Origin: a virus
IMG/VR virus record: IMGVR_UViG_3300029720_000418
Coordinates: 3,344 to 67,343 of that record
Length of the DNA: 64,000 nucleotides
Direction: 5' to 3' (one strand)
Shown: positions 3,031 to 64,000 of the stretch, in pieces
Layout: every line of letters starts with the position of its first letter
How positions within the stretch are numbered: the first letter of the stretch is position 1
Program-made: the position numbers and the translations under genes
The notes under the pieces: generated by a model
Database searches by the model: none
Told to the model about the DNA's origin: nothing
Seen by the model: the letters and a program-made list of their open reading frames with translations, nothing else

Positions 3031-3056
3031 GAGAGCTACGGCTCTCTTATTTTTCG
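3031..3056 (+). terminator. rho-independent terminator (duplicated at 3477-3500)
   Basis: GAGAGCTACGGCTCTC followed by TTATTTTT. Confidence 0.55.
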
Positions 3057-3080
3057 CGAAAAATACTTTCACTATTATGA
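3053..3080 (+). promoter_or_regulatory. conserved promoter-like motif copy
   Basis: TTCGCGAAAAATACTTTCACTATTATGA. Confidence 0.5.
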
Positions 3081-3329: not shown

Positions 3330-3345
3330 TGGACTCTTCTTTTTC
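3319..3345 (+). terminator. rho-independent terminator
   Basis: GGAGTCC-TAAT-GGACTC followed by TTCTTTTT. Confidence 0.55.
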
Positions 3346-3370
3346 GCGAAATTTACAAAGCCTATTATGA
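3343..3370 (+). promoter_or_regulatory. conserved promoter-like motif copy
   Basis: TTCGCGAAATTTACAAAGCCTATTATGA. Confidence 0.5.
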
Positions 3371-3500: not shown

Positions 3501-3528
3501 TTCGCAAAATTTTCATTGGCTATTATGA
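3501..3528 (+). promoter_or_regulatory. conserved promoter-like motif copy
   Basis: TTCGCAAAATTTTCATTGGCTATTATGA. Confidence 0.45.
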
Positions 3529-3554: not shown

Positions 3555-3758
3555 ATGAAAAAGGCTATTAAAATTATCGGAAAGATTACGAAATGGTATT
3601 TAATATTAGATGCGATTGTATGTGCATATATTGGAGTATGCCGGATGATCCATTTGGTTATGAAATATCCCCAAAAATCTATTCTGGAAATAGACGAAAT
3701 AGCTTTGGATGAGGCTGACGCTGAATTCAAAAAATATTATAACAAATATATTAAATAA
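3555..3758 (+). CDS. small membrane protein (67 aa)
   Basis: RBS TAAGGAGGG. N-terminal TM segment. Confidence 0.5.
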   Translation: MKKAIKIIGKITKWYLILDAIVCAYIGVCRMIHLVMKYPQKSILEIDEIALDEADAEFKKYYNKYIK

Positions 3759-3804
3759 GAGGGCTTCGGCTCTCTTATTTTTCAATAAGAAAGGAGATGA
3801 TCTA

Positions 3805-4584
3805 TTGATCAATGCAAAATTATTTCTCAAAAGACACTCTTCAACAATTTTAGCATGTCTTGGATGTGCAGGGGTTATAGTGACTTCTGTAACGGCTGTA
3901 CGAGCAACCCCAAAGGCTATTAAACTATTAGAAGAAGCCGAAGAAAACAAAGGATCTGAATTAACAACATGGGAAAAAGCCAAGACAACGACGAAAGCAT
4001 ATTTACCGTCGATATTGTTTGGTGTTTCAACCATTGCGTGTATTGCCGGTTCTTCGATTCTTTCATATAACACCCAGAAATCTATGGCAAGTGCATACGC
4101 TTTGATAAATCAATCGTATCGAGATTATCGTAGAAAAGCAAAAGATATTTACGGCGAAGATGCAGATAGAAAGATTCTTGATGCGATCATTGCTGAAAAA
4201 GCGAAGACTATGTACGTAGAAGCTCCTGGTATTTGTGATTGTGCGACCTTATACATCGACGAGAATCACGGAGAGAAACGATTGTTCTACGACGAATATG
4301 GCAAGCGATTCTTTGAATCAACGTTGGAGCAAGTTATATCAGCGGAGTATCATACGAACCGTAATTTTGTATTACGCGGATCACAGATGCTAAATGAATT
4401 CTATGGGTTCCTGGGTTTGGAACCTACTGATTTTGGTTGGGAAGCTGGATGGTGTGTTATGGATGAGTTTTATTGGATTGATTTTGATCATAGTGAAATT
4501 GAAATCGATGGCAAGAAATGTATCGTCATTCGGATGCCATGGGAACCTAAAATCGGATACGACGATGATAATTATTACTATTAA
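3805..4584 (+). CDS. paralog A of a two-TM membrane protein family (with 5150-5929 and 7534-8466)
   Basis: TTG start 8 nt after AAGGAG. Shares the N-terminal motif K-HS..IL..LG.AG..V.AA.ATPKA and a second TM. Also shares the C-terminal FYxxxGL...IGW domain. Confidence 0.6.
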   Translation: MINAKLFLKRHSSTILACLGCAGVIVTSVTAVRATPKAIKLLEEAEENKGSELTTWEKAKTTTKAYLPSILFGVSTIACIAGSSILSYNTQKSMASAYALINQSYRDYRRKAKDIYGEDADRKILDAIIAEKAKTMYVEAPGICDCATLYIDENHGEKRLFYDEYGKRFFESTLEQVISAEYHTNRNFVLRGSQMLNEFYGFLGLEPTDFGWEAGWCVMDEFYWIDFDHSEIEIDGKKCIVIRMPWEPKIGYDDDNYYY

Positions 4585-4612
4585 TTCGCGAAAACAACAT
4601 TTACTATTATGA
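4585..4612 (+). promoter_or_regulatory. conserved promoter-like motif copy
   Basis: TTCGCGAAAACAACATTTACTATTATGA. Confidence 0.5.
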
Positions 4613-5149: not shown

Positions 5150-5929
5150 ATGAGTAAAGAATCATTTGCGAGATTTGTGAAAAGCACAAAAAGAGGTCTC
5201 GTAAAACACAGTCCGGAAATCTTAACCGGATTAGGAATCGCAGGAATGATATCATCTGTCGTTCTTGCAGCAAAAGCAACACCTAAAGCACTTCAGTTGA
5301 TTGAAGAAGCGAAGGATAAGGCGGATACAGACAAGCTTACAGTACCAGAAACAATCAAGGCAGCATGGAAGCCATATATTCCAGTTGTACTTACATGTGG
5401 TGCATCCGTAGCTTGTATCATTGGTGCCAATACGGTAAATACACGTCGTAATGCTGCTCTTGCTACAGCATATGAGCTCTCGAGAAATGCTCTGACCGAG
5501 TATAAGGAGCGTGTTGTAGAGGAGATCGGTAAGGAAAAGGAACAGAAGATACAGGAAAAGGTTGCTCAGAAAAAAGTAGACAATACACCTGTTACATCCG
5601 AGGTTATTGTAACTGGAGGCGGGGACATATTGTTCCTTGAACCTGTATCAGAGAGATATTTCAAATCCGATGTTGAGACTATTCGTAGAATCATCAACGA
5701 TTTGAACTATCGATTAATGAATGGCAGCGAGGAGTATGTATCGTTGAGTGATTTCTATGATGAAGTCGGTTTGACTCATACGGCAATCAGTAATGATATT
5801 GGGTGGAATTTGAATCATGATGGTCAGATATCGGTCAGCTTGCCCGCAACAAAGACAGACAAGGGAGAGCCATGCCTGATGTTGGATTATCATGTAGCAC
5901 CGCGGTACGATTATTCAAAATTATCGTAA
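5150..5929 (+). CDS. paralog B of the two-TM membrane protein family
   Basis: RBS GGAGGAAT. N- and C-terminal similarity to 3805-4584 and 7534-8466 is visible by eye. Confidence 0.65.
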   Translation: MSKESFARFVKSTKRGLVKHSPEILTGLGIAGMISSVVLAAKATPKALQLIEEAKDKADTDKLTVPETIKAAWKPYIPVVLTCGASVACIIGANTVNTRRNAALATAYELSRNALTEYKERVVEEIGKEKEQKIQEKVAQKKVDNTPVTSEVIVTGGGDILFLEPVSERYFKSDVETIRRIINDLNYRLMNGSEEYVSLSDFYDEVGLTHTAISNDIGWNLNHDGQISVSLPATKTDKGEPCLMLDYHVAPRYDYSKLS

Positions 5930-5957
5930 TTCGCGAAAAATACAAGCACTATTATGA
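5930..5957 (+). promoter_or_regulatory. conserved promoter-like motif copy
   Basis: TTCGCGAAAAATACAAGCACTATTATGA. Confidence 0.5.
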
Positions 5958-7533: not shown

Positions 7534-8466
7534 ATGAAGAATGATTTGAAAAATAAGATGACTCGGTCATTATGTAAGGCAAAGTTTAAGGTTAAAAAGC
7601 ATAGTCCAGAGATCTTGGTTGTTGCAGGCGTGATTGGTACGGTGACAAGTGCTGTGATGGCATGTCGCGCTACAACAAAGCTGAGTAAGATTCTCGATGA
7701 GGCGAAAGAGACAGAGAAGACAATCTCTGAAGGAATGGAAAGTGGATATATCGCAGATCAGGAATACACAGAGGAAGACGGCAAGAAGGATCTCAGAATC
7801 ACAAAGGTTCAGACTGGATTAAAGGTTGTAAAGCTGTATGCACCAGCTGTTATCCTTGGCGGATTATCAATCACAGCCATGCTGACATCTAACAATATTC
7901 TCAGAAAGAGAAACGTATCACTTGCAGCGGCATATGCAGCAGTAGATAAGAGTTTCAAGGAATATCGTGGCAGAGTAAAGGAACGTTTCGGTGAAGAGCT
8001 GGACAAGGAGCTTCGTTACAACATCAAGGCGAAGGAAATCGAAGAAGTAGTTAAGGACGAGAAGACCGGTAAGGAAAAGGTTCAGAAAAAGATCGTGAAC
8101 GTTTCTGATTTTGATGATTGCAGCGAGTACGCAAAGTTTTATGATTGCGGTTGCACTGGATGGACGAAAGATCCAGAATTGAATTTGATGTTTCTTAGAA
8201 AACAGCAGGATTTCTTGAATGATCGGTTAAAGGCTGAGGGTTATCTGTTCTTGAATGACGTGTATGATGCTCTTGGCATTCAGAAAACAAAGATTGGTCA
8301 GATTGCAGGTTGGATTTACGATGAAAAGAATCCAGTCGGAGATAACTATATCGATTTCGGAATTTATGACACTCATCGTGAGGCAAATAGAAGATTTGTA
8401 AACGGTCTTGAGAGAACAATTCTTCTTGATTTCAATTGTGATGGTGACATTCTGGACATGATGTGA
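7534..8466 (+). CDS. paralog C of the two-TM membrane protein family
   Basis: RBS AAAGGAG. Has the KKHSPEILVVAGVIG N-terminus and the IGQIAGW C-terminal motif. Confidence 0.65.
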   Translation: MKNDLKNKMTRSLCKAKFKVKKHSPEILVVAGVIGTVTSAVMACRATTKLSKILDEAKETEKTISEGMESGYIADQEYTEEDGKKDLRITKVQTGLKVVKLYAPAVILGGLSITAMLTSNNILRKRNVSLAAAYAAVDKSFKEYRGRVKERFGEELDKELRYNIKAKEIEEVVKDEKTGKEKVQKKIVNVSDFDDCSEYAKFYDCGCTGWTKDPELNLMFLRKQQDFLNDRLKAEGYLFLNDVYDALGIQKTKIGQIAGWIYDEKNPVGDNYIDFGIYDTHREANRRFVNGLERTILLDFNCDGDILDMM

Positions 8467-16609: not shown

Positions 16610-17846
16610 GCCGTTTCTGTACGATTATCAGATGGATGCTGTAAATCATATGTTCAATGGGTGCATTCTCAATGGTGGTGTTGGATCGGGAAAGAGTAGA
16701 ACCGGATTATATTACTACTTCAAAGAACAAGGCGGTAGTATAAATCCAGACTATAAACCGATGAAAAAACCAAAAGATTTATATATTATCACAACCGCTA
16801 TGAAACGGGACAAGCTTGAATGGGATGGAGAATTAGCAAACTTCTTATTGTCCAGAGACGCTAAGAAGAACACATTGAATGGCAACGTAAAAATCGTTGT
16901 TGATTCGTGGAACAGAGTAAAAAAATACATGGCTGTGGAAAATGCGTTCTTCATATTTGACGAACAAAGGGTTGTTGGATCGGGAACTTGGGTTAAGGCA
17001 TTTTTAAAGATAGCCAAAAACAATGATTGGATATTATTATCAGCAACAGCTGGCGATAAATGGCCTGATTATATTCCGGTATTTATAGCAAACGGTTTTT
17101 ATAAAAATCGATCTGAGTTTATTCGGGAACATATTGTATATTCTCGATATACAAAATATCCACAGATTGATAAGTATTTGAACGTCGGACGTCTAATTCG
17201 ATTAAGGAATAAAATTCTGATTGATATGGAATTTAAACGTCCAACGACAGCTCATCACAATGATATTTATGTAACATATGATGTCACTAAGTACAAATCG
17301 GTTGTAAAAAATAGATGGGATCCGTACAAAAATGAACCCATCCAGCAAGCATCAAGTCTTTGTTATATTCTGAGAAGAATAGTGAATGAAGACGAATCCA
17401 GAATAGTAGCTCTATTGGAGATTCTTGAGAAGACTCCTAGAGCTATTATTTTTTATAATTTTGATTACGAGCGAGAGATGCTATTACATGTTTTCAGCAA
17501 CCACGATGAAACAGATAAAGACTTTGAAGTAGCGGAATGGTCTGGACATGCCCACCAACCTGTGCCAGGAACAAAGCGATGGGTATATTTGGTGCAGTAC
17601 ACGGCTGGATGCGAAGGCTGGAATAGTATTAAGACAGACACGATTATATTCTACTCACAGAATTACAGTTATAAGGTTGTGACACAGGCTGCCGGTCGAA
17701 TTGATCGTCTGAATACGCCATTCAAAGATCTATATTATTATCATCTGAAAAGTCGAAGTGGAATTGACCTCGCCATTAGCAAAGCATTGAAGGAGAAGAA
17801 AAAGTTCAATGAAGCAAAGTGGTGTAAAAATTCATTCGCGAAATAA
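16599..17846 (+). CDS. SF2 (DEAD/DEAH-like) helicase
   Basis: Motif I GGVGSGKS, motif II FIFDEQR, motif III LSATAG, motif VI QAAGRIDR. The start could instead be the GTG at 16590. Confidence 0.7.
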   Translation: MPTKPFLYDYQMDAVNHMFNGCILNGGVGSGKSRTGLYYYFKEQGGSINPDYKPMKKPKDLYIITTAMKRDKLEWDGELANFLLSRDAKKNTLNGNVKIVVDSWNRVKKYMAVENAFFIFDEQRVVGSGTWVKAFLKIAKNNDWILLSATAGDKWPDYIPVFIANGFYKNRSEFIREHIVYSRYTKYPQIDKYLNVGRLIRLRNKILIDMEFKRPTTAHHNDIYVTYDVTKYKSVVKNRWDPYKNEPIQQASSLCYILRRIVNEDESRIVALLEILEKTPRAIIFYNFDYEREMLLHVFSNHDETDKDFEVAEWSGHAHQPVPGTKRWVYLVQYTAGCEGWNSIKTDTIIFYSQNYSYKVVTQAAGRIDRLNTPFKDLYYYHLKSRSGIDLAISKALKEKKKFNEAKWCKNSFAK

Positions 17847-17862
17847 TCATGCCCTTATATGA
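17835..17862 (+). promoter_or_regulatory. conserved promoter-like motif copy (overlaps the helicase stop codon)
   Basis: TTCGCGAAATAATCATGCCCTTATATGA. Confidence 0.45.
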
Positions 17863-18195: not shown

Positions 18196-18441
18196 ATGAC
18201 AATTGAAAGATGGCAACAGGAATTCGCAGATCGTTTACGCGATAAGATGAATGAACGTGGATGGAGCATTCACAAAACAGCAAAGGAATCCGGTTTAAGT
18301 ATCATGACAATATCTAAGTATATAAATGCGCTGGTAGTTCCGAGATGTACGGAATTGATGAAACTTGCTAATGCTTTCAGTGTAAATCCTTCATATTTCA
18401 TAGATTTTGGCGAGTCAGTTGAGTTTTTGATAGGGAGGTGA
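18196..18441 (+). CDS. XRE-family HTH transcriptional regulator
   Basis: HTH SIHKTAKESGLSIMTISKYING, typical of the Cro/CI-type fold. RBS TAGGAGGT. Confidence 0.65.
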   Translation: MTIERWQQEFADRLRDKMNERGWSIHKTAKESGLSIMTISKYINALVVPRCTELMKLANAFSVNPSYFIDFGESVEFLIGR

Positions 18442-24066: not shown

Positions 24067-24094
24067 TTCGCGAAATTTACAAGGTGTATTATGA
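24067..24094 (+). promoter_or_regulatory. conserved promoter-like motif copy inside the ThyX interruption
   Basis: TTCGCGAAATTTACAAGGTGTATTATGA. Confidence 0.5.
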
Positions 24095-24284: not shown

Positions 24285-24312
24285 TTCGCGAAAATTACAT
24301 CTCCTATTATGA
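24285..24312 (+). promoter_or_regulatory. conserved promoter-like motif copy inside the ThyX interruption
   Basis: TTCGCGAAAATTACATCTCCTATTATGA. Confidence 0.5.
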
Positions 24313-25981: not shown

Positions 25982-26521
25982 ATGGCAGAATTAAATCCTA
26001 AAACAGATGCGACAAAGAAAGTCATACATTTAATGGTTACACCATTATGTAATAGAAATTGTAGGTATTGTTGTAATAAACAATATGATATAAATGATAT
26101 TTCTTATGTTACCGATGAGGAATTAAGAGAAGCTGAGGTTCTTTGCTTAACGGGCGGGGAACCTTTTTTGTTTACGGATCCATGTTGGATCGCCCGGCAT
26201 TACAAAAGGAGATATTCAAACATAAAAAAAGTATATGTATATACTAATGCCAAAGAATTATATCTTTGGTTAGCGGGTTACAATCTCATACATAATATTG
26301 ACGGCTTGAATGTCTCTATTAAAAACAAAGATGATTTATATTTCTTCAAAGAACTTGTTCACAATTATCAAAATCAAATTTGTGTTGATAATTGCATGAG
26401 TAATCGAGTTTATATTTTTGATAGTTTGATTCCCGATGACCTTGGAATATTTGAACCAATTATTCGGGAATGGCAGGAAGATTTTAAACCAGCGCCTGAT
26501 AGTATATTTAGAAGATTATAA
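25982..26521 (+). CDS. radical SAM enzyme (small, QueE/NrdG-like size class)
   Basis: CxxxCxxC (CNRNCRYC) near the N-terminus. Glycine-rich LTGGEPFL SAM-binding motif. RBS GGAGGAAT. Confidence 0.65.
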   Translation: MAELNPKTDATKKVIHLMVTPLCNRNCRYCCNKQYDINDISYVTDEELREAEVLCLTGGEPFLFTDPCWIARHYKRRYSNIKKVYVYTNAKELYLWLAGYNLIHNIDGLNVSIKNKDDLYFFKELVHNYQNQICVDNCMSNRVYIFDSLIPDDLGIFEPIIREWQEDFKPAPDSIFRRL

Positions 26522-28574: not shown

Positions 28575-28904
28575 ATGACTACTATTGCGGTCTTGTGTAA
28601 GGACAATAAAGATGCCGGGCATTTGTTTTGTGAATTGGTCAACCGACTTAGGGCTGCTGGTATAACGATGAATCGTTTGATATGGCACCAATCAGTTATC
28701 GGGAATAAGAAATGTCGAGTTCGGGTTTATTCTTGTTCAGACGGCAGAGAAGAATGGAGAGGGACTAAGGTAGATATGACATTCGGATTTTCAGTAAAGC
28801 AACAGCATGAAATATTAAAAGAAGGGTGTCAAGCCAGCCGGAAATATATTGAGATGAGGGATGATTATGCAGGGATCTTGAGTGGTTATTTTGGAGCAAA
28901 ATAG
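28575..28904 (+). CDS. hypothetical protein (109 aa)
   Basis: ATG after AAGAGGTGA. Confidence 0.5.
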   Translation: MTTIAVLCKDNKDAGHLFCELVNRLRAAGITMNRLIWHQSVIGNKKCRVRVYSCSDGREEWRGTKVDMTFGFSVKQQHEILKEGCQASRKYIEMRDDYAGILSGYFGAK

Positions 28905-29007
28905 CTTGCATGGATGAAAAACTTGCACGCACAGAAGTTGCATGCACGAAAATACTTGCATGGACGAAAGTTTTTTTAGAGTGATTTTTATGAATTTTTT
29001 GGACGAC

Positions 29008-29021
29008 TTGCATGCGTGCAA
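29008..29021. promoter_or_regulatory. operator-like palindrome O1
   Basis: TTGCATGCGTGCAA (TTGCA-N4-TGCAA). Confidence 0.5.
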
Positions 29022-29067
29022 TTTTGGGCTTCAAAAAACCACGTATTTAAGCCATTTTTGGGCATTA

Positions 29068-29083
29068 CTTGCACGTATGCAAG
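29068..29083. promoter_or_regulatory. operator-like palindrome O2 (perfect 16-mer)
   Basis: CTTGCACGTATGCAAG. Confidence 0.55.
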
Positions 29084-29131
29084 CACCCTTAATCGATATT
29101 AAAAAATATATATTATATAAGAAAATAAGCG

Positions 29132-29147
29132 CTTGCATGTGTGCAAG
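29132..29147. promoter_or_regulatory. operator-like palindrome O3, between the -10 region and the RBS of the HTH gene
   Basis: CTTGCATGTGTGCAAG. Additional half-sites CTTGCA(T/C)G lie at 28905-28965. Confidence 0.55.
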
Positions 29148-29170
29148 TTTTTAGGAGGTGAAAACAAACC

Positions 29171-29401
29171 ATGAGTGAAACTGAATTTATTGACATTTTT
29201 AGTGATAATTTAAGAGATCTTATGATTGAGCGTAATTACACACAAAGATCGTTGGCAAAGGAAGCGGAATTGTCTGAATCAGCCATTACAAGATTTTTAC
29301 AGAAAAAGTCTATGCCGACATTACGAGCAGTTATTAATTTATCTTTGTCGCTCAGTTGTGATGTGGACGATCTGATTCCAACATATGATTATATCAAGTA
29401 G
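29171..29401 (+). CDS. XRE-family HTH regulator (Cro/CI-like), probably autoregulated via the upstream operator array
   Basis: HTH YTQRSLAKEAELSESAITRFL. RBS TAGGAGGTG. Operators lie at 29007-29147. Confidence 0.65.
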   Translation: MSETEFIDIFSDNLRDLMIERNYTQRSLAKEAELSESAITRFLQKKSMPTLRAVINLSLSLSCDVDDLIPTYDYIK

Positions 29402-29416
29402 AAAGGAGACGAGTAA

Positions 29417-29572
29417 ATGATATCACTTGAGTTTGCTGTAAAGTGCGTTACATTACTTATTTGTATTTATCCGCTTAGTATTTATCCAATAGTGGATAGA
29501 ATCTGTAGATGTAAGGAGCAGAAATATGTAAGCGATGTTATTAAGAAAAATACTGATGATAACAAACAGTAA
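29417..29572 (+). CDS. small membrane peptide (51 aa)
   Basis: Below the track cut-off. RBS AAAGGAGACG. Confidence 0.3.
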   Translation: MISLEFAVKCVTLLICIYPLSIYPIVDRICRCKEQKYVSDVIKKNTDDNKQ

Positions 29573-29642
29573 ATTAATATTTAAGAGAGGCGTTGGTTTT
29601 TACTGACGCTTTTCTTTTTGCAATGAAAGGAGAACAAAAATT

Positions 29643-30054: not shown

Positions 30055-30081
30055 CCGCGGAAATATCATGCCCTTTTATGA
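30055..30081 (+). promoter_or_regulatory. variant promoter-like motif (same 3' half as the 17835 copy)
   Basis: CCGCGGAAATATCATGCCCTTTTATGA, followed by a structured ~110-nt leader. Confidence 0.35.
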
Positions 30082-30192
30082 GAGGAAAGTGTGATATTCT
30101 GTATTTCACAACATTTCCTCTTACCTTTGACTTTGGAACGTACTCCGGTGTCCTTCGGGCCCGGGGTCATTTATATTTAAGGAGGGGTTAAA

Positions 30193-31012: not shown

Positions 31013-33988
31013 TTGAATCCTATTGCAGAAGAAATTGAATCATATCATGGATGTGGCTCGATGACAACGACTGAATTCCTTGAGCATTATGGAATGCCTA
31101 GAAGATCGGGCAGATATCCATGGGGTTCTGGTGGAGATCCATATCAGCATGAGAGAGACTTCCTTAGTCGAGTTGAAGAATTAAAAGCAACTGGCTGGAC
31201 AGAAACTCCGGAGAATATTAAAGAGACATTCGGATTGACGACAACACAGTATCGTACAGAGAAAGCTCTGGCTAAAGATGAACGAAGAATGTATGACGTA
31301 GCAAGAGCAAAGTCACTCAGAGATGATGGTCTTGGAGCAACAGAGATTGGACGTAAGATGGGTATCAATGAATCGACAGTCAGATCATTACTTAATCCAC
31401 ATTCTGAACAGCGTATGGAGCAGGCGAGAAACACTGCAAAATATTTGAAAGAACAAGTGGATAAGAAAGAAATGGTTGAGGTTGGTACAGGTGTAGAGCG
31501 AGAGCTGAATATTTCAAAGGAGAAATTAGATCAAGCTCTCTATCTGTTGCAGAGAGATGGATATAACGTTTACAAAGGTGGAATACCACAGGCAACCAAC
31601 CCAGGGCAGCAGACAAATCAGAGAGTATTATGTAAGCCTGGAATTGAGCATAAAGAAATATATGATTTCAATAGAGTACAGTCCTTGAAAGATTACATTT
31701 CGAGAGATGGCGGTGATACTTTTGAAAAGAAGTTCCATTATCCAGAGAGCATGGATTCAAGGCGATTGGCTATCCGTTACAAAGAAGATGGGGGAATCGA
31801 CAAGGATGGAGTAGTAGAGCTTCGTCCTGGTGTTGCTGACTTATCGCTTGGCGAATCTCGTTATTCTCAGGTTCGTATTATGGTTGACGGTAAGAAATAC
31901 ATAAAGGGTATGGCTGTTTATGGAGATCCAAAAGATTTTCCCGATGGTGTTGACGCTATCTTCAATACAAACAAATCTAAGTCAGTAGCAAAGATGGATG
32001 TGTTGAAAGACATCAAGAATGATCCAGACAATCCTTTTGGTTCACTCATCAAAGATGCTGATCAAGGAGGTCAGTATTGGTATGATGATCCAAAGACTGG
32101 TAAAAAGAAACTTGGATTAATCAATAAAAGATCCGATGAGGGTGATTGGACTGAATGGAAAGACACGTTACCATCTCAGTTTTTAGCAAAGCAGTCATTG
32201 AGAATGGCGGGTAAACAGCTGGATTTAGCCAAGGCAGACAGAAGAGATGAGTTTGAAGAGATTAAATCTATCACGAACCCTGTGATTAAAAAACATTTCT
32301 TAGAAAAATTTGCTGATAGTTGTGATTCAGCATCAGTTCATTTGAAAGCAGCAGCGTTACCGGGGCAGAAATACCATGTAATACTTCCTATCAATTCTTT
32401 AAAGGAGAACGAAGTGTATGCTCCTGGATATACGCCAGGAACTAAGTTAGCATTGATTCGTTATCCGCATGGTGGAACATTTGAAATTCCAATACTTACT
32501 GTTACTGATAAAAATCCAGAAGGTAGAAGAATAATCGGAACCGAATCTATTGATGCAGTCGGTATTAATCACACGGTTGCTGAGCGTTTATCAGGAGCCG
32601 ATTTTGATGGTGATACTGTTATGTGTATCCCAACACACGACAAAGCAGGAAGGGTTAAGATCGCCTCAACGCCTCCATTAAAAGGTCTTGAGGGATTTGA
32701 TCCAAAAATGTCATACCCAGAACGTCCTGGTATGAAATATATGAAAGACCCAAAGACTGGTAAAGACAATACTCAGAATGAAATGGGGAGAATTTCAAAC
32801 CTTATCAGTGATATGACCTTAGCAGGAGCACCACCAGAAGAAATGGCTAGAGCAGTAAGACATTCTATGGTAGTTATTGATGCTGGAAAACATAAGTTGG
32901 ACTACAAGCAAAGTGAGATTGATAACAACATTAAAGCATTGAGGAAAGAATATCAGGTTAAGACAGATAAGGATGGAAACATTACTGGCTATGGTGGTGC
33001 CGCTACTATCATTTCAAGAAGTAAGGGCGAATCTACAATAAACAAACGCCAAGGTACGCCCAAGATTAATCTTAAGGGTAAAGAATGGTATGACCCAAGC
33101 AGACCTGAAGGTGCACTTATCTATAAAGATGCAGATAACCTATACTACCCAGATCGTAAGCAAGAAAAAGGTATCGTGGAGTTACGTACCGTGGATGGTA
33201 AAAAAGTAACCTACTCCTATGCCGATAAGGATGCGGTAGATAGGTATGCCCCAGTAGAGAGGAGAGACCCTGCTACCGGAAAAGTCACATTCACTAATAA
33301 AGATGGAAGCATAGAGTATCGAACCAAGGTTCATACACAGAAGAGTACCAATATGGCTGATACTGATGATGCATACACTCTAGTATCAAAGGCTAGACAC
33401 CCTATGGAACTTCTATATGCCGATTATGCCAATGATATGAAAGCATTAGCGAATCAGGCACGTGTTGAACTAGCTAATACAAGTAAGGTGGCATATAACC
33501 GAAATGCCAACACAATGTATAAAGCAGAGGTTAAGTCGTTGGATGAGAAACTTAATAATGCATTATTAAATGCTCCTAGAGAGCGTGCCGCGCAACGAAT
33601 GGCTAATGCTGAAGTACAAAAGAAACAATTGGACAATCCTGATTGGAAGTCTGCTGATGTTAAGAAAGCGAGTCAGCAAGCATTAACAAAGTTTCGACAA
33701 GAAGTTGGCTCTGTCTCGAGAAGAGCTCGAAACATACAGATTACAGACAATGAATGGAAAGCTATTCAAGCTGGAGCAATCAGTGAAAGTAAATTAAAGA
33801 AGATTCTTAATAATGCAGACATTGATGAATTGAGACAACGTGCCACACCAAGACAGACAAAAGCTATGACCGAATCTCAAATCAATCGTGCAAAAGCAAT
33901 GTCTTCTTCGAACTTCACATTAAAACAGATCGCAGATGCTTTAGGTGTCTCAACATCAACAGTTTCAAAGTATTTGAAAGGAGCGTGA
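31013..33988 (+). CDS. single-subunit RNA polymerase with beta-prime-type double-psi beta-barrel (YonO/crAss-vRNAP-like), flanked by HTH domains
   Basis: LALIRYPHGGTFEIPIL at ~32455-32500 matches the beta-prime NRAPTLHRLGIQAFEPVL region. GADFDGDTVMCIP at 32594-32632 matches NADFDGDQMAVHVP. Sigma-region-4-like HTHs lie at the N-terminus (~31300-31390) and the extreme C-terminus (~33900-33985). Confidence 0.6.
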   Translation: MNPIAEEIESYHGCGSMTTTEFLEHYGMPRRSGRYPWGSGGDPYQHERDFLSRVEELKATGWTETPENIKETFGLTTTQYRTEKALAKDERRMYDVARAKSLRDDGLGATEIGRKMGINESTVRSLLNPHSEQRMEQARNTAKYLKEQVDKKEMVEVGTGVERELNISKEKLDQALYLLQRDGYNVYKGGIPQATNPGQQTNQRVLCKPGIEHKEIYDFNRVQSLKDYISRDGGDTFEKKFHYPESMDSRRLAIRYKEDGGIDKDGVVELRPGVADLSLGESRYSQVRIMVDGKKYIKGMAVYGDPKDFPDGVDAIFNTNKSKSVAKMDVLKDIKNDPDNPFGSLIKDADQGGQYWYDDPKTGKKKLGLINKRSDEGDWTEWKDTLPSQFLAKQSLRMAGKQLDLAKADRRDEFEEIKSITNPVIKKHFLEKFADSCDSASVHLKAAALPGQKYHVILPINSLKENEVYAPGYTPGTKLALIRYPHGGTFEIPILTVTDKNPEGRRIIGTESIDAVGINHTVAERLSGADFDGDTVMCIPTHDKAGRVKIASTPPLKGLEGFDPKMSYPERPGMKYMKDPKTGKDNTQNEMGRISNLISDMTLAGAPPEEMARAVRHSMVVIDAGKHKLDYKQSEIDNNIKALRKEYQVKTDKDGNITGYGGAATIISRSKGESTINKRQGTPKINLKGKEWYDPSRPEGALIYKDADNLYYPDRKQEKGIVELRTVDGKKVTYSYADKDAVDRYAPVERRDPATGKVTFTNKDGSIEYRTKVHTQKSTNMADTDDAYTLVSKARHPMELLYADYANDMKALANQARVELANTSKVAYNRNANTMYKAEVKSLDEKLNNALLNAPRERAAQRMANAEVQKKQLDNPDWKSADVKKASQQALTKFRQEVGSVSRRARNIQITDNEWKAIQAGAISESKLKKILNNADIDELRQRATPRQTKAMTESQINRAKAMSSSNFTLKQIADALGVSTSTVSKYLKGA

Positions 33989-34245: not shown

Positions 34246-34367
34246 ATATGTGGTGGAAAAAGCATAGAGGGGGGTCTGAAAAAACGCACCCCCTCCCTGC
34301 ATCGCCGCCCTCTTTGAAAATTCCCCGGAGGGATTTTTTATATTTGAGTTTCATGATACTTGTAAGG

Positions 34368-34471
34368 GCTTATGATATGGTCTAATGCACATCTCAATGG
34401 ACCTGCCACCTATTGAGAGTTTGTTAATTTCTCCTTTCTGTTTTGTGCATCCCTCCGCCATATCATAAGTC
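34368..34471. repeat. nested imperfect palindrome immediately upstream of the terS-like gene
   Basis: Outer arms CTTATGATATGG / CCATATCATAAG. Inner arms ATGCACA / TGTGCAT and CTCAATGG / CC(T)ATTGAG. Confidence 0.5.
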
Positions 34472-34523
34472 TTTATAAGTGTTATGAAACAGTATGGAAA
34501 CTATAAGAAAGGAGATCAGAAAC

Positions 34524-60675: not shown

Positions 60676-60835
60676 ACTAATGTTTAGTTTCAAGTAATGG
60701 CAATAAAAAGCGGTTTATTTGACCATTATTTGACACTTTATACCGTATAAATGGCTTAAAACCTAGACTTTCTGTTTCTGTTGAGGAAGCAGCAAAGGCT
60801 GGAAAGTTCTAGAGACAATGAGCCGTGCATAACGG

Positions 60836-60895
60836 ATAAAAAAATGGCTGGTCAAGCTTGCTTGAAACCAGTCATTTTTTTATCCGTTTATATAG
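60836..60895. repeat. long inverted repeat / stem-loop (~20-bp arms)
   Basis: CGGATAAAAAAATGGCTGGT ... ACCAGTCATTTTTTTATCCG, with one mismatch. Confidence 0.6.
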
Positions 60896-61065
60896 GGCGA
60901 ATGCCCGAGACCGACTCGAAGCGAAGCGCAGAGGAGGTTGCACGGCGAATGATTTCCTGTTTATTTTTTATTCTAAGTATTCTCTAAGCCATTCCACAAC
61001 GTTTGCCGTGTATGTGGATTCGGTTATATCTTGTATATTATTTTCCACAAAATGTAAATCTGGGC

Positions 61066-61380
61066 TCGCGGGAGAGAAATTAAGCGGAAAAACCCACGAC
61101 GTGGGCGTAGGCGGAGAAAAGCAAGCAGAAAAACCCAAACCGGAAGCTAATCGGAAAGATACGGAGATGAAGCTGGGTGTGAGGGAGAGAAATTAAGCAG
61201 AACCCCCCACGATATGGGCGTAGGTGGAGAAAAGCAAGCAGAAAAACCCAAACCGGAAACTGATCGGAAAGATACGGAGATGAAACTGGGTGTGAGGGAG
61301 AGAAATTAAGCAGAAAAACCCACGACGTGGGCGTAGGCGGAGAAAAGCAAGCAAGAAAACCCAAACAGGAAATTAATATA
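61066..61380. repeat. ~115-bp tandem repeat, about 2.7 copies, each with a CCCACGACGTGGG hairpin
   Basis: Units begin near 61071, 61183 and 61296 (GGGAGAGAAATTAAGC...GGCGTAGGCGGAGAAAAGCAAGCAGAAAAACCCAAACCGGAA...). Confidence 0.65.
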
Positions 61381-61522
61381 GTAAATATCTGGAAATCAGG
61401 GTTGAAATCATATCCATGACAGAAGAAAATTACACATTGTTATTTCCATATATGTATGATAGTGTTAAAATGAATGAAAGAATTTTACAACAATCCTTTG
61501 TATATTTGGGAGGAGGGAAAAT

Positions 61523-62233
61523 ATGTCATTAAAGTTAAAAGATGAGGATTCCACAAAACGCATGAAAGATATGCAGGAAGAATTAAAAGATCCTTCACTG
61601 GGGGAGTTTAGCGATTTAGAACAGGATCCATATGTCATTGAATCCAAAAGGACAACTCCAATCGATAAGCCTGTTTATCAACCGGATGGAAAGCTTTCAT
61701 CTGCAATAGATAGAAATCCATATATTTTGTCAGAGGAAAAACAAGCGCGAATCTTTGGAGAAGATTTAGGTGACAAAGAAATAAGAAAAAAGTCCGTCCG
61801 TAAGGAAGTGATGATAGTTATGTTTGTCGGGCTGGCTTTGTTGTTCGCGGGACTTGCGGCATATGTACATAATGATCTGTTTTTAAGAAAAGCTGAGACC
61901 GTACCAGGTATTGTAACAGAAAAACGTATGCATAGAAATCATGCAACTTGCACCATCTTTGTGGATTATGAAGTAGATGGAAAAACATATAATGAGATAT
62001 ATGTGGGTGATGGACATGATATGCAGATAGGGCAGAAGGTAACGGTATATTATGATCCGGAGAAACCAACCAAAATAACGGATGGAAGGAAAATCCCGAC
62101 AATGTCTGTCTATCTTGTTATAATAGGAGGGGCTTTGTTCCTGATAGGCGGTTATCTCGTATTCTGGATGAACCAGAATCCTGACAAGGGAATTGAGATT
62201 TATAACAGGATATTCAAGAAGCGTGACAAATAA
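61523..62233 (+). CDS. DUF3592-like membrane protein (host-like)
   Basis: Two TM helices flank a beta domain (GIVTEKRM....CTIFVDYEVDGKTY....VGQKVTVYYDPEKP). RBS GGGAGGAGGG. Confidence 0.55.
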   Translation: MSLKLKDEDSTKRMKDMQEELKDPSLGEFSDLEQDPYVIESKRTTPIDKPVYQPDGKLSSAIDRNPYILSEEKQARIFGEDLGDKEIRKKSVRKEVMIVMFVGLALLFAGLAAYVHNDLFLRKAETVPGIVTEKRMHRNHATCTIFVDYEVDGKTYNEIYVGDGHDMQIGQKVTVYYDPEKPTKITDGRKIPTMSVYLVIIGGALFLIGGYLVFWMNQNPDKGIEIYNRIFKKRDK

Positions 62234-62488
62234 ACAGAATCTGTGTGTAATAGAAGAAGTTTTGTAAAACTTTAAACTATAAGTACATAGATAATTAATC
62301 GATTCCTTAATGAAAAATGCATTATTGTACAGAAAATGTACGAAAAATGCAGAAAAATGTAATAGTGATTTTCACACATACATGGTACAATATTGAATAG
62401 ATGCAGGAATGTGAATTTTGCACCAAAGAAAATATGCGATCTGAGTCGCATAGCAATCAATTAACTTGTTGTTAGGGAGGGTTTTTGT

Positions 62489-64000
62489 ATGTCAGGTTCA
62501 ACAATTGCTATTATTATCATTATCGTGGCATTGCTGGTCATTTTATTTACCAGTTATGTCAAATCACCACCGGATAAGGCGTATATCATTTCCGGTTTAA
62601 GAAAGACACCGAAGATTCTGATTGGTAAAGCAGGCTTGAAGCTTCCGTTCTTCGAGCGGAAGGATGAACTGTTGATCAAGCAGATCAGTATCGATATCAA
62701 GACGGATGATTATGTTCCGACACTGGATTTCATCGGTGTTAACATTGATGCAGTTGCGAAAGTTAAGATCCGTACGGATGAAGAAGGTATGCAACTTGCC
62801 ATGAAGAATTTCCTGAATATGAAGGAACCGCAGATTATGGAAGCACTGGTGGATTCTCTGCAGGGTAATATGCGTGAGATTATCGGTACGATCAGTCTGA
62901 AGGAGTTGTGTAACGATCGTAAGTCCTTCGGTGATCAGGTGCAGGAGAAGGCGCAGGTGGATATGAATCGTCTGGGTATTGAGATTATTTCCTGCAACAT
63001 CCAGCATGTAGAGGATCAGAATGACCTGATTATCGCGCTTGGTCAGGATAACATGGCAGCAATCCAGAAGAATGCAAGTATCGCCAAGGCAAACGCAGAC
63101 CGTGATGTAGCGATCGCACAGGCACAGGCGAGAAAAGAAGCGAACGATGCAAAGGTATTATCCGATACGGAAATTGCCGTGAAGCAGAATGAGCTTTCTA
63201 TCAAGAAGGCAGAATTAAAGACAATCGAAGATACGAAGAATGCGGAAGCAGATGCGGCTTACGAGATTCAGAAGGAAGCACAGCGTAAGACAATCGAGGT
63301 TACAAAGACCGAGGCAGATATCGCACGTCAGGAGAAGGAAGTTGACCTGAAGAAGAAGGAAGCCGAGGTTATGGAGCAGTCCCTCGATGCGGATATTCGT
63401 AAGAAAGCGGAGGCGGACAAGTTCGCAAGACAGCAGCAGGCAGATGCGGAGCTTTACAAGCGTCAGAGAAATGCCGAGGCAGATAAGTTTGAGAAGCAGC
63501 AGGAAGCTGAGGCGAAGAAGGCACAGGCAGAGGCAGAGCTTTTCGCAAAGCAGCAGGAGGCAGCAGGTATCCGTGCAGTCGGCGAGGCAGAGGCGAAGGC
63601 AATCGAAGCCAAAGGTCTTGCAGAGGCAGAAGCCTTAGAGAAGAAAGCCGAAGCGATGAAGAAGTATGGTCAGGCAGCGATGGTGGAAATGATCGTGAAG
63701 GCATTGCCGGAGATGGCAAAGGCAATCGCAGAGCCACTCTCTACAATCGACAAGGTTACGATCATCGACGGCAACGGCGAAGGTTCCGGTGTCGGTTCGA
63801 TGGGGTCGTATGTGCCACAAGTCCTTGCAAAGACAATGGAGTCTGTGAAGGAAGTAACAGGTATCGATATCGCGGATATTATGCGTGCAAATACATACGA
63901 TGCAAAGGTTAACAAGAATGTGAACATCACAGGCCTGGATGGAATCAAGGTAGAAGCTCCTGCAGAGGCGGGAACTTCCGTAGATACAACTGTGGAGTAA
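62489..64000 (+). CDS. flotillin / SPFH (band-7) family protein
   Basis: N-terminal TM. SPFH domain. Long A/E/K-rich coiled-coil repeats (AEAEAKAIEAKGLAEAEAL). GC content is clearly higher than in the phage region. Confidence 0.75.
   Translation: MSGSTIAIIIIIVALLVILFTSYVKSPPDKAYIISGLRKTPKILIGKAGLKLPFFERKDELLIKQISIDIKTDDYVPTLDFIGVNIDAVAKVKIRTDEEGMQLAMKNFLNMKEPQIMEALVDSLQGNMREIIGTISLKELCNDRKSFGDQVQEKAQVDMNRLGIEIISCNIQHVEDQNDLIIALGQDNMAAIQKNASIAKANADRDVAIAQAQARKEANDAKVLSDTEIAVKQNELSIKKAELKTIEDTKNAEADAAYEIQKEAQRKTIEVTKTEADIARQEKEVDLKKKEAEVMEQSLDADIRKKAEADKFARQQQADAELYKRQRNAEADKFEKQQEAEAKKAQAEAELFAKQQEAAGIRAVGEAEAKAIEAKGLAEAEALEKKAEAMKKYGQAAMVEMIVKALPEMAKAIAEPLSTIDKVTIIDGNGEGSGVGSMGSYVPQVLAKTMESVKEVTGIDIADIMRANTYDAKVNKNVNITGLDGIKVEAPAEAGTSVDTTVE

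Follow-up and report, generated by a model that had tools for sequence, protein, structure and literature searches.

A TTGCA site array as the probable binding region of an adjacent Xre-type protein in a temperate phage

Background

Which protein reads the dense cluster of TTGCA-based palindromes and half-sites that lies in front of a small helix-turn-helix (HTH) gene in a temperate phage, and to what end? The cluster occupies positions 28905-29147 of the stretch of DNA analysed here, 64,000 nucleotides of the IMG/VR virus record IMGVR_UViG_3300029720_000418 (positions 3,344 to 67,343 of that record), which we call the window and to which all coordinates refer unless a comparison locus is named. 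An original prediction had taken the cluster for the operators of the lone HTH regulator encoded next to it. Three kinds of natural variation among related phages support that proposal, and on balance we favour the view that 28905-29147 is the cognate binding-site array of the Xre-type HTH protein of 76 amino acids (aa) encoded directly downstream.

Results

Seven sites in a non-coding interval

The array comprises seven sites, three palindromes and four half-sites, within 250 bp of non-coding DNA between the stop codon (28904) of a 112-aa open reading frame (ORF) and the ribosome-binding site (RBS) of the HTH gene:

28905-28970, + strand: distal cluster of four half-operators in the same orientation, with starts 15-18 bp apart
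28905, 28922, 28937 and 28955, + strand: the half-sites CTTGCATGGATGAAAA, CTTGCACGCACAGAAG, GTTGCATGCACGAAAA and CTTGCATGGACGAAAG, each with left arm TTGCA
29007-29022 (core 29008-29021), no strand: O3, CTTGCATGCGTGCAAT, read in the sequence
29068-29083, no strand: O2, the perfect 16-mer CTTGCACGTATGCAAG, which abuts the conserved CACCCTTAAT
29132-29147, no strand: O1, CTTGCATGTGTGCAAG, followed by TTTTT and then by the RBS AGGAGG (29153-29158)

All three palindromes are 16 bp long and of the form CTTGCA-N4-TGCAAG, with centres 61 and 64 bp apart (64 bp between O2 and O1). They stand where the original prediction had seen them, and every exact match in the window falls here: TTGCA-N4-TGCAA occurs three times in the 64 kb, always in the array and within 140 bp, as compared to 0.22 occurrences expected from dinucleotide-preserving shuffles, and all six exact copies of CTTGCAYG lie inside 28905-29139 (235 bp). 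The predicted minimum of four CTTGCA(T/C)G half-sites was recovered as well, the one at 28937, which reads GTTGCATG, completing a set of four with those at 28905, 28922 and 28955. The right arms of the half-sites are degenerate (TGAAA, CAGAA, CGAAA and CGAAA versus TGCAA).

An ORF that runs through the array (28942-29154) had been suspected to be spurious. Since it has no family match and is disrupted by indels of 1-2 nt and 10 nt in sister haplotypes, we rejected it as a coding sequence. A known RNA family was likewise rejected because nothing in the array region reaches an Rfam gathering score, and a search of a plasmid database with the array returned A+T-rich chance matches only.

The adjacent HTH protein

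29171-29401, + strand: Xre/Cro-CI-type HTH gene, 76 aa, assigned by Pfam, PHROG and a structure model

The product of this gene matches the Pfam families HTH_26 (35.9 bits, cutoff 22) and HTH_3 (32.4 bits, cutoff 23) and also PHROG transcriptional repressor families, while a search by sequence only gave a weak match to an uncharacterised Bacteroides protein and nothing else. The AlphaFold2 model (predicted local distance difference test, pLDDT, 92) has five helices (residues 3-20, 25-32, 36-43, 51-60 and 65-68), the third of which, at about residues 36-43, reads ESAITRFL, and we are confident from this model that the protein has the five-helix Xre fold. The best Foldseek matches in the PDB are C.AhdI and C.BclI, then P22 c2, 434 Cro and SinR (template modelling, TM, scores of 0.7-0.84); the closest structure is 1y7y (TM 0.78-0.83, root-mean-square deviation 0.9-1.3 A). 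The protein is a single domain, without a C-terminal oligomerisation or self-cleavage domain, and an alignment of its homologues shows invariant N-terminal IDIF-DNLR and C-terminal DDLIP motifs. One scaffold with the gene, MT835495.1, begins inside it, and its array lies outside the scaffold. The window also encodes a second small Xre-type HTH paralogue of 81 aa (18196-18441; E = 8e-20 to the family profile), which follows a terminator and comes without its own repeat array.

Operator arms and recognition helix change together

Does the HTH protein read the sites? We compared loci of related phages, which are labelled here by L-numbers; P0003 is the HTH homologue of L090-92 and P0004 that of L093. 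The window and L090-92 form a natural swap pair: P0003 is 86% identical to the window protein and the DNA of L090-92 aligns base for base with the window, yet the inner arm bases differ in all three palindromes (TTGCA to TTGAC) while the backbone between the sites is almost unchanged. In O3 (CTTGCATGCGTGCAAT to CTTGACAGTTGTCAAT) and O1 (CTTGCATGTGTGCAAG to CTTGACAGTCGTCAAG) the arm change is symmetric, from TTGCA..TGCAA to TTGAC..GTCAA, and of the distal cluster only the first site persists, two TTGACAGTTGGTAAG sites and one TTACCAATTGGTAA palindrome taking the place of the other three. In 28985-29170, which lies 3' of that cluster, differences affect 16 of the 48 operator positions and 16-18 of the remaining 138 positions (Fisher P = 0.001-0.004). 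In the protein, 8 of the 11 substitutions fall in residues 26-48 (helices 2-3) and three in the other 53 residues (P = 0.002), whereas synonymous changes are distributed oppositely (three in residues 26-48 versus 8-9 outside).

More distant homologues point the same way. L096 (51% identity, helix SESTISRYL) and L098 (56% identity, helix NKSTITRYL), which both retain the Ser-Glu/Lys-Ser start of helix 3, have arrays of TTGCA-N4-(T/C)GCAA sites. A different palindrome, CTTACC-N4-GGAAAG, is found in L093-95, with the helix SEASITRYLRKER, and a similar TTACC-type site goes with a similar RKER tail in L104; in L097 (helix SKGTISKYL) the palindromes are GTTTC-N6-GAAAC. Finally, among nine window-type haplotypes, whose HTH proteins are identical where the gene is on the fragment, variable positions make up 1 of 30 in the palindrome arms and none of 20 in the half-site arms, as compared to 5 of 12 in the site centres and 18 of 204 in other DNA. 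The centre of O3 reads TGCG, TGCA or TGTA among phages with an identical HTH protein.

As the swap pair, the distant proteins with the same sites and the haplotype polymorphism agree, binding by the adjacent HTH protein is the best-supported reading, and on this evidence from natural sequences we hold it to be very likely. The co-variation of helix and arms, together with the conservation of the arms, also lends indirect support to the predicted sequence-specific binding to DNA with dyad symmetry.

A core with promoter-like geometry and a terminator

29084-29131, + strand: core, consisting of CACCCTTAAT (29084-29093) and a nearly pure A+T stretch (29094-29131)
29111-29116 and 29116-29121, + strand: the -10-like hexamers TATTAT and TATAAG in the core, seen in the sequence
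29417-29572, + strand: optional hydrophobic 51-aa ORF in the same cassette, no family match
29583-29616, + strand: terminator-like hairpin (stem of 15 bp, 3' side rich in U), which closes the HTH cassette

The core between O2 and O1 is probably a promoter without a canonical -35 element; alternatively it is a DNA-unwinding element. From the -10-like hexamer it is about 40 nt upstream to the centre of O2 and, counted from the hexamer start, about 24 nt downstream to that of O1, and the predicted transcription start site near 29128 would put O1 at about +4 to +19 and O2 at about -60 to -45. The last palindrome had been thought to overlap both the -10 element and the start site of the HTH gene. 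Since O1 lies between TATAAG (29116-29121) and the RBS (29153-29158), it covers the likely start site and the 5' leader, but the -10 element itself is left free.

Relatives with unrelated operators share this layout. A distal site cluster is followed by T-tract/GGGC words, by an operator that abuts a conserved (C/T)ACCC(C)TTAWT, by about 45 bp of A+T with a TATAAT-like hexamer, and by a second operator with a T-run, after which come the RBS and the gene; relatives that differ in their operators have the combination of ACCC(C)TTATTA and AAAAATATATA(AT) a single time per locus. Of 10 loci examined, 8 have their core-flanking operators at a distance of 64-69 bp from each other (77 bp in L096; L073 differs). 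From the -10-like hexamer it is 22-27 nt downstream to the centre of the proximal operator and 40-45 nt upstream to that of the distal one in six of the loci; L032 has a proximal distance of 49, and for L096 and L073 this distance is ambiguous. Many site spacings in the relatives are near multiples of 10.5 bp but those of 66-70 bp are not, and we therefore rejected helical phasing of all site spacings in relatives and limit any such claim to the 61 and 64 bp of the window.

The terminator-like hairpin has a centroid energy of -18.6 kcal/mol, and the minimum free energy of its 81-nt fragment, -19.6, corresponds to z = -3.9 versus shuffles, the z-score being computed on the minimum-free-energy value. 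It is kept in L091 and L092, which lack the 51-aa ORF, while L090 has the ORF. A LexA-type box (GAAC-N4-GTTC) is present in the A+T core of the L085 array (~2723) and beside an early-type promoter in L099 (~2797), which hints at an SOS input in some members of the family. LexA control of the window array was rejected, as the array contains no LexA-type box.

A family-wide element upstream of the polymerase module

31013-33988, + strand: YonO-like single-chain RNA polymerase of 991 aa, phrog_4291 ('RNA-dependent RNA polymerase'), with a GADFDGD motif
268-295, 449-476, 1073-1100, 1525-1552, 2797-2824, 3053-3080 and 3343-3370, + strand: copies of a 28-nt promoter-like motif
3501-3528, 4585-4612, 5930-5957, 17835-17862, 24067-24094 and 24285-24312, + strand: further copies of the 28-nt motif

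In 117 of 121 related loci with a repeat-dense segment, this segment lies 0.5-4 kb upstream of an exonuclease gene. The HTH cassette of the window is placed accordingly, about 0.9 kb upstream of an endonuclease-exonuclease-RNA polymerase module: downstream of it are genes for a NUMOD protein, a phrog_93 endonuclease, a PD-(D/E)XK exonuclease and the RNA polymerase, the last of which begins 1.6 kb downstream of the HTH gene. In Lactococcus phage 1706 the array is directly upstream of the polymerase gene, and in Arthrobacter phage Arcadia (L179 2957-3200) it is upstream of the endonuclease-exonuclease-polymerase genes. The Arcadia array is made of AAGTGG(G/C)C words, with five of the seven copies in the 57 kb examined lying in the array. 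The same words recur in Lachnospiraceae prophages: as AAAGTGG(G/C)C they make up the array in front of the exonuclease-polymerase module both in actinobacterial phages and in prophages of Firmicutes (L015, L034, L018 and L112-L152 besides L179), and they are presumably read by a conserved phage protein. Judged by position and layout, the window array is one instance of a family-wide element upstream of the phage RNA polymerase module. The literature on phage 1706, YonO and the actinophage/Firmicute supercluster describes the polymerase, not this array.

The polymerase carries sigma-region-4-like HTHs at both ends. In phages 1706 and ReqiPoco6 it has been annotated as a structural protein, and YonO-like polymerases mark a supercluster of actinophages, Lactococcus 1706-like phages and Faecalibacterium phages. 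The promoter-like motif, TTCGCGAAA-N11-TATTATGA, occurs in 13 copies in the window, all on the + strand, where 0.08 are expected; it often stands after terminator hairpins and is also present in the relatives L001 and L099. A degenerate copy seen by eye (30056-30085), outside the 13, precedes the endonuclease-exonuclease-polymerase genes. The spacing is not that of a sigma-70 -35/-10 pair, so that the RNA polymerase of the phage itself may recognise the motif or an activator may be required. None of the copies is accompanied by HTH operators.

Discussion

A probable autoregulated cassette

How might the array work? We propose that dimers of the HTH protein bind the three CTTGCA-N4-TGCAAG palindromes, and that the four weaker half-palindromes upstream increase local occupancy. 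O2 and O1 would then bracket an AT-rich core that offers a TATAAT-like hexamer without a canonical -35. Because O1 lies over the predicted start site and leader, its occupancy would shut off transcription of the HTH gene by blocking initiation or escape, that is, by negative autoregulation. O2 lies immediately 5' of the -35 position and could also stimulate when occupancy is low, and O2, O3 and the half-sites would supply cooperativity. Given that the operators bracket a core with a -10-like hexamer and that a terminator follows the gene, the unit most likely is a self-contained autoregulated cassette, whose protein and sites would have diverged in step between sister prophages, in the manner of heteroimmune phages. 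The sites, their restriction to this part of the window, the conserved geometry and the co-variation with the recognition helix are seen directly in the sequences; binding, the stoichiometry of the dimers, the promoter, the sign of the regulation and any effects on downstream genes we infer.

The original prediction had preferred an autoregulatory switch to a classical CI/Cro pair, a choice with which the operator-bracketed core and the terminator fit. It had also described every gene as lying on the + strand, without a divergent partner. This agrees with what we find: each ORF of the window that has a family match is on the + strand, GC skew is positive throughout the window, and within the window no credible minus-strand gene flanks the array, the minus-strand ORFs there consisting of the repeats themselves. 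The locus does resemble the CI/Cro systems of lambda, 434 and P22 with their operators OR1-3 in that an Xre HTH protein is combined with several 14-17-bp palindromes at what is predicted here to be its own promoter, in a temperate phage. As in heteroimmune lambdoid phages, moreover, operator arms and recognition helix co-vary between sisters and the centres are less constrained. Different from the lambdoid phages, however, the window has no two divergent regulator genes sharing operators and no second promoter; its protein, a single domain of 76 aa, lacks the C-terminal oligomerisation or cleavage domain; its strong sites, instead of adjoining each other, stand at distances of 61-64 bp and are accompanied by a direct half-site cluster; and its operators do not lie over early lytic promoters, the 13 early-type motifs being without TTGCA sites. 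Since several defining features are missing, we do not regard the locus as a classical CI/Cro divergent switch. The CI protein of the lactococcal phage TP901-1, a temperate phage of a Firmicute, is an Xre-type repressor that acts on separated palindromic operators (OR, OL and OD) with cooperative looping. The window shares with it three separated palindromic operators and an Xre-type protein, but has neither the divergent CI/MOR pair nor a multidomain CI.

In restriction-modification systems, controller (C) proteins that bind to palindromes in front of the genes encoding them produce a delayed, self-limiting switch. A small co-directional Xre gene with upstream palindromes, for which autoregulation is predicted, agrees with them in architecture as well as in fold: C.AhdI, C.BclI and C.Esp1396I are lone Xre proteins of about 75 aa, C proteins are the best structural matches, and the HTH gene of the window is co-directional with and upstream of nuclease genes. 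Unlike in these systems, no linked methyltransferase and restriction endonuclease genes are found downstream of the HTH gene, the operators are not a compact 35-bp C-box pair, a terminator and the NUMOD gene intervene between the HTH gene and the nucleases, and sequence similarity is not detectable.

Points against and alternative readings

Several observations weigh against the array being simply the operators of the HTH gene. In the swap pair, O2 has changed from CTTGCACGTATGCAAG to a hybrid, CTTGCACGTTGTCAAG, that keeps the old left arm, and the first distal half-site stays TTGCA-type despite the changed HTH protein. No complete promoter came out of a simple sigma-70 scan of the array, where the -35 position is taken by the conserved ACCCTTAAT. 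No small HTH gene follows the arrays of phages 1706 or Arcadia. Distant relatives carry additional repeat classes, some of which track an upstream ribbon-helix-helix (RHH) protein and some of which are family-wide (AAAGTGGGC); since related arrays hold both, the HTH protein need not be the sole binder, and the arrays of this family can, by their repeat content, be multi-protein platforms. In the window array only one site class is evident. Lastly, co-variation of protein and sites would be expected equally for an initiator and its origin, and one segment of the array is also found at a plasmid-type origin:

29035-29059, + strand: 25-nt backbone element AAAACCACGTATTTAAGCCATTTTT, flanked by the T-tract/GGGC words TTTTGGGC at 29022 and 29056

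This element lies between O3 and O2 and does not differ between the window, L090-95 and the window-type haplotypes. An exact copy of it is found in an unrelated Rep_3 replicon (L189, L192 and L196; 1185-1209 in L196). The copy there stands directly after six 22-bp iterons, about 400 bp downstream of the Rep_3 initiator gene, and is followed by A-rich DNA with several DnaA boxes. Could the array then be the replication origin of the phage, alone or doubling as an operator, with the half-sites as iterons, the AT-rich core as the unwinding element and the HTH protein as an origin-specificity protein that autoregulates through the palindromes? We take this as a serious alternative or addition, if a doubtful one. 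The 25-nt identity with an iteron-origin element speaks for it, although the element could equally be a host-factor site or a remnant of recombination. The layout is iteron-like as well, with repeats in the same orientation (28905-28970) by an A+T segment (29094-29131), phased T-tracts, an A+T core of some 45 bp and palindromes around the promoter of the neighbouring gene. Theta-plasmid Rep proteins autoregulate via sites at their own promoters, and in Rep_3 theta plasmids and at lambda ori/O, direct repeats, an A+T segment and inverted repeats likewise occur at the promoter of the gene for the binding protein; site and protein co-vary in a type-specific manner at iteron origins too. Owing to its direct half-sites, A+T core and promoter palindromes, the array thus resembles a theta-plasmid origin with an autoregulated rep gene. 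Furthermore, it is single-copy and family-wide, it is kept without a following HTH gene in 1706 and Arcadia, its words cross host phyla, and the invariant N- and C-terminal motifs of the HTH protein could be a partner-binding surface. Then again, this protein is a bare single-domain Xre of 76 aa that falls outside the known initiator families, being neither a winged-helix Rep nor O-type, and no initiator of a known family (Rep_3, lambda O) is encoded adjacent to the array. No DnaA box (TTATCCACA, up to one mismatch) is present within 28900-29170, the replication genes are 11-19 kb away, and cumulative GC skew has no inflection at the array. The fixed spacing of TATAAT-like hexamer, proximal operator and RBS is what a promoter-operator region predicts. 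The sharing of the Rep_3-origin element and the conservation of the array between phages of Arthrobacter and prophages of Lachnospiraceae suggest that the locus may couple the control of transcription to the initiation of replication. In the Rep_3 replicon a Dam methylase gene lies downstream of the copy, and in L196 dnaX lies further downstream.

That the sites are bound by another protein (an RHH or the NUMOD protein, the HTHs of the RNA polymerase, the paralogue at 18196-18441 or a host factor), with the adjacent HTH protein unrelated to them, appears very unlikely to us. It is true that one repeat class in relatives appears to follow the upstream RHH protein rather than the HTH protein: L033 and L036 have almost identical HTHs but different repeats and different RHH beta-strands, and L083 and L047 share the same TTGGATATCCAAAAA repeat but differ in their HTHs. 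A search of the window, however, detected no RHH gene of the relatives' family. The second Xre paralogue of the window would be another candidate. HTH orthologues that conserve the helix come with TTGCA arrays even where their surroundings have otherwise diverged, and the changes that go with the operator swap concentrate in the recognition helix of the adjacent HTH protein. As to the neighbours in the swap pair, of which the NUMOD and upstream 112-aa proteins were covered on the short sister contigs, the former is 95% identical and the latter 87-88%, with scattered changes. The RNA polymerase cannot set the site specificity, for its N- and C-terminal HTH helices hardly vary between phages whose operators are of different types. 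Even less credible is a reading in which the palindromes act as hairpins, that is, as leader-RNA attenuators or terminators, or as cruciforms, instead of as protein sites. O1 and TTTTT are terminator-like, with a stem-loop detected on the - strand and the T-run on the + strand, the long inverted repeat 29067-29148 has weak hairpin-type Rfam matches, and the symmetric arm changes keep pairing in O3 and O1. However, no Rfam family passes its threshold; all sites shift to one new sequence and not merely to any complementary pair; the hybrid O2 of L090-92 weakens pairing; the half-sites, which share one arm, cannot pair; and it is the loops, or centres, that are free to vary while the arm sequence is fixed.

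Two further functions were considered for the array and rejected. Promoters of the phage RNA polymerase do not agree with palindromes that occur only here, with the constancy of the polymerase HTHs and with a dispersed motif that is different; an RHH centromere or partition site does not agree with the absence of a relatives'-type RHH from the window and of a ParA-like gene from the neighbours tested. In many relatives an RHH-like protein with a KRGRPK N-terminus is encoded directly upstream of the array, an assignment made from the sequence pattern, the Pfam NikA-like match being weak and sub-threshold. Loci with the RHH repeat class are L033 (3748-3936) versus L036 (3261-3548), L083 (2943-3197) and L047 (2898-3089). 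L050 and L033 have a common repeat core despite different RHH beta-strands.

Wider role and significance

Might the HTH protein and its array do more than regulate one gene? They could be the master switch in a family of temperate phages whose lytic programme is run by a YonO-like RNA polymerase of their own. The AT-rich core would be the one host-polymerase promoter that starts expression toward the polymerase module, clamped from both sides by the HTH protein, and the negative loop together with polymerase feedback on at least 13 phage promoters would create bistability without CI/Cro; the complex may also mark the origin, and co-evolution of specificity would define immunity groups among gut prophages. 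We put this forward as an unlikely extension of the autoregulated cassette.

If the cassette is read correctly, the family offers natural orthogonal repressor/operator pairs with TTGCA, TTGAC, TTACC and GTTTC arms and known helix changes, which would permit a direct test of the recognition code of small Xre proteins. The locus would also be the likely control point of widespread, unstudied temperate phages of gut Firmicutes with a single-chain two-barrel RNA polymerase. What sets it apart are the clean natural specificity swaps, the link to the phage polymerase module and the identity with a plasmid-origin element.

Prophage context and neighbouring features

The window is, to judge from its gene content and a close relative, a temperate prophage. 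In a near-identical IMG/VR contig (IMGVR_..._076329, 60,095 bp) a 3.5-kb segment lies between the matches to window 60820 and window 1, and thus between late and early genes. It encodes a minus-strand tyrosine integrase (PF00589, 50 bits), carries direct arm-type TTTGACCA repeats and contains no TTGCA operators; the window lacks it. The last 3.2 kb of the window (60821-64000), with DUF3592 and SPFH/flotillin genes and a higher G+C content (0.45), are absent from phage contigs, so that a prophage-host junction at about 60805-60820 is probable. Window-type arrays are also found on contigs of 127-210 kb. Within the presumed host flank there are two copies of a direct repeat of about 110 bp (61197-61400; …gcagaaaaacccac..gtgggcgtagg.ggagaaaagcaagca…).

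Many contigs of relatives end about 3.0-3.5 kb after the exonuclease gene, just past the polymerase gene, and because they stop at equivalent places a packaged genome end (cos or terminal repeat) probably lies at 34.2-34.5 kb. The array itself was rejected as a packaging or cos site, the contig ends of relatives corresponding to 34.1-34.5 kb, about 5 kb away from it. Just 3' of the polymerase operon, 34246-34493 is non-coding and G+C-rich and contains inverted repeats.

Three paralogous phrog_2152 genes (3709-4584, 5150-5929 and 7534-8466) lie in the promoter-rich start of the early region. A 179-aa ORF (25982-26521) has a radical-SAM-type CxxxCxxC motif (CNRNCRYC) near its N-terminus, as read in the translation.

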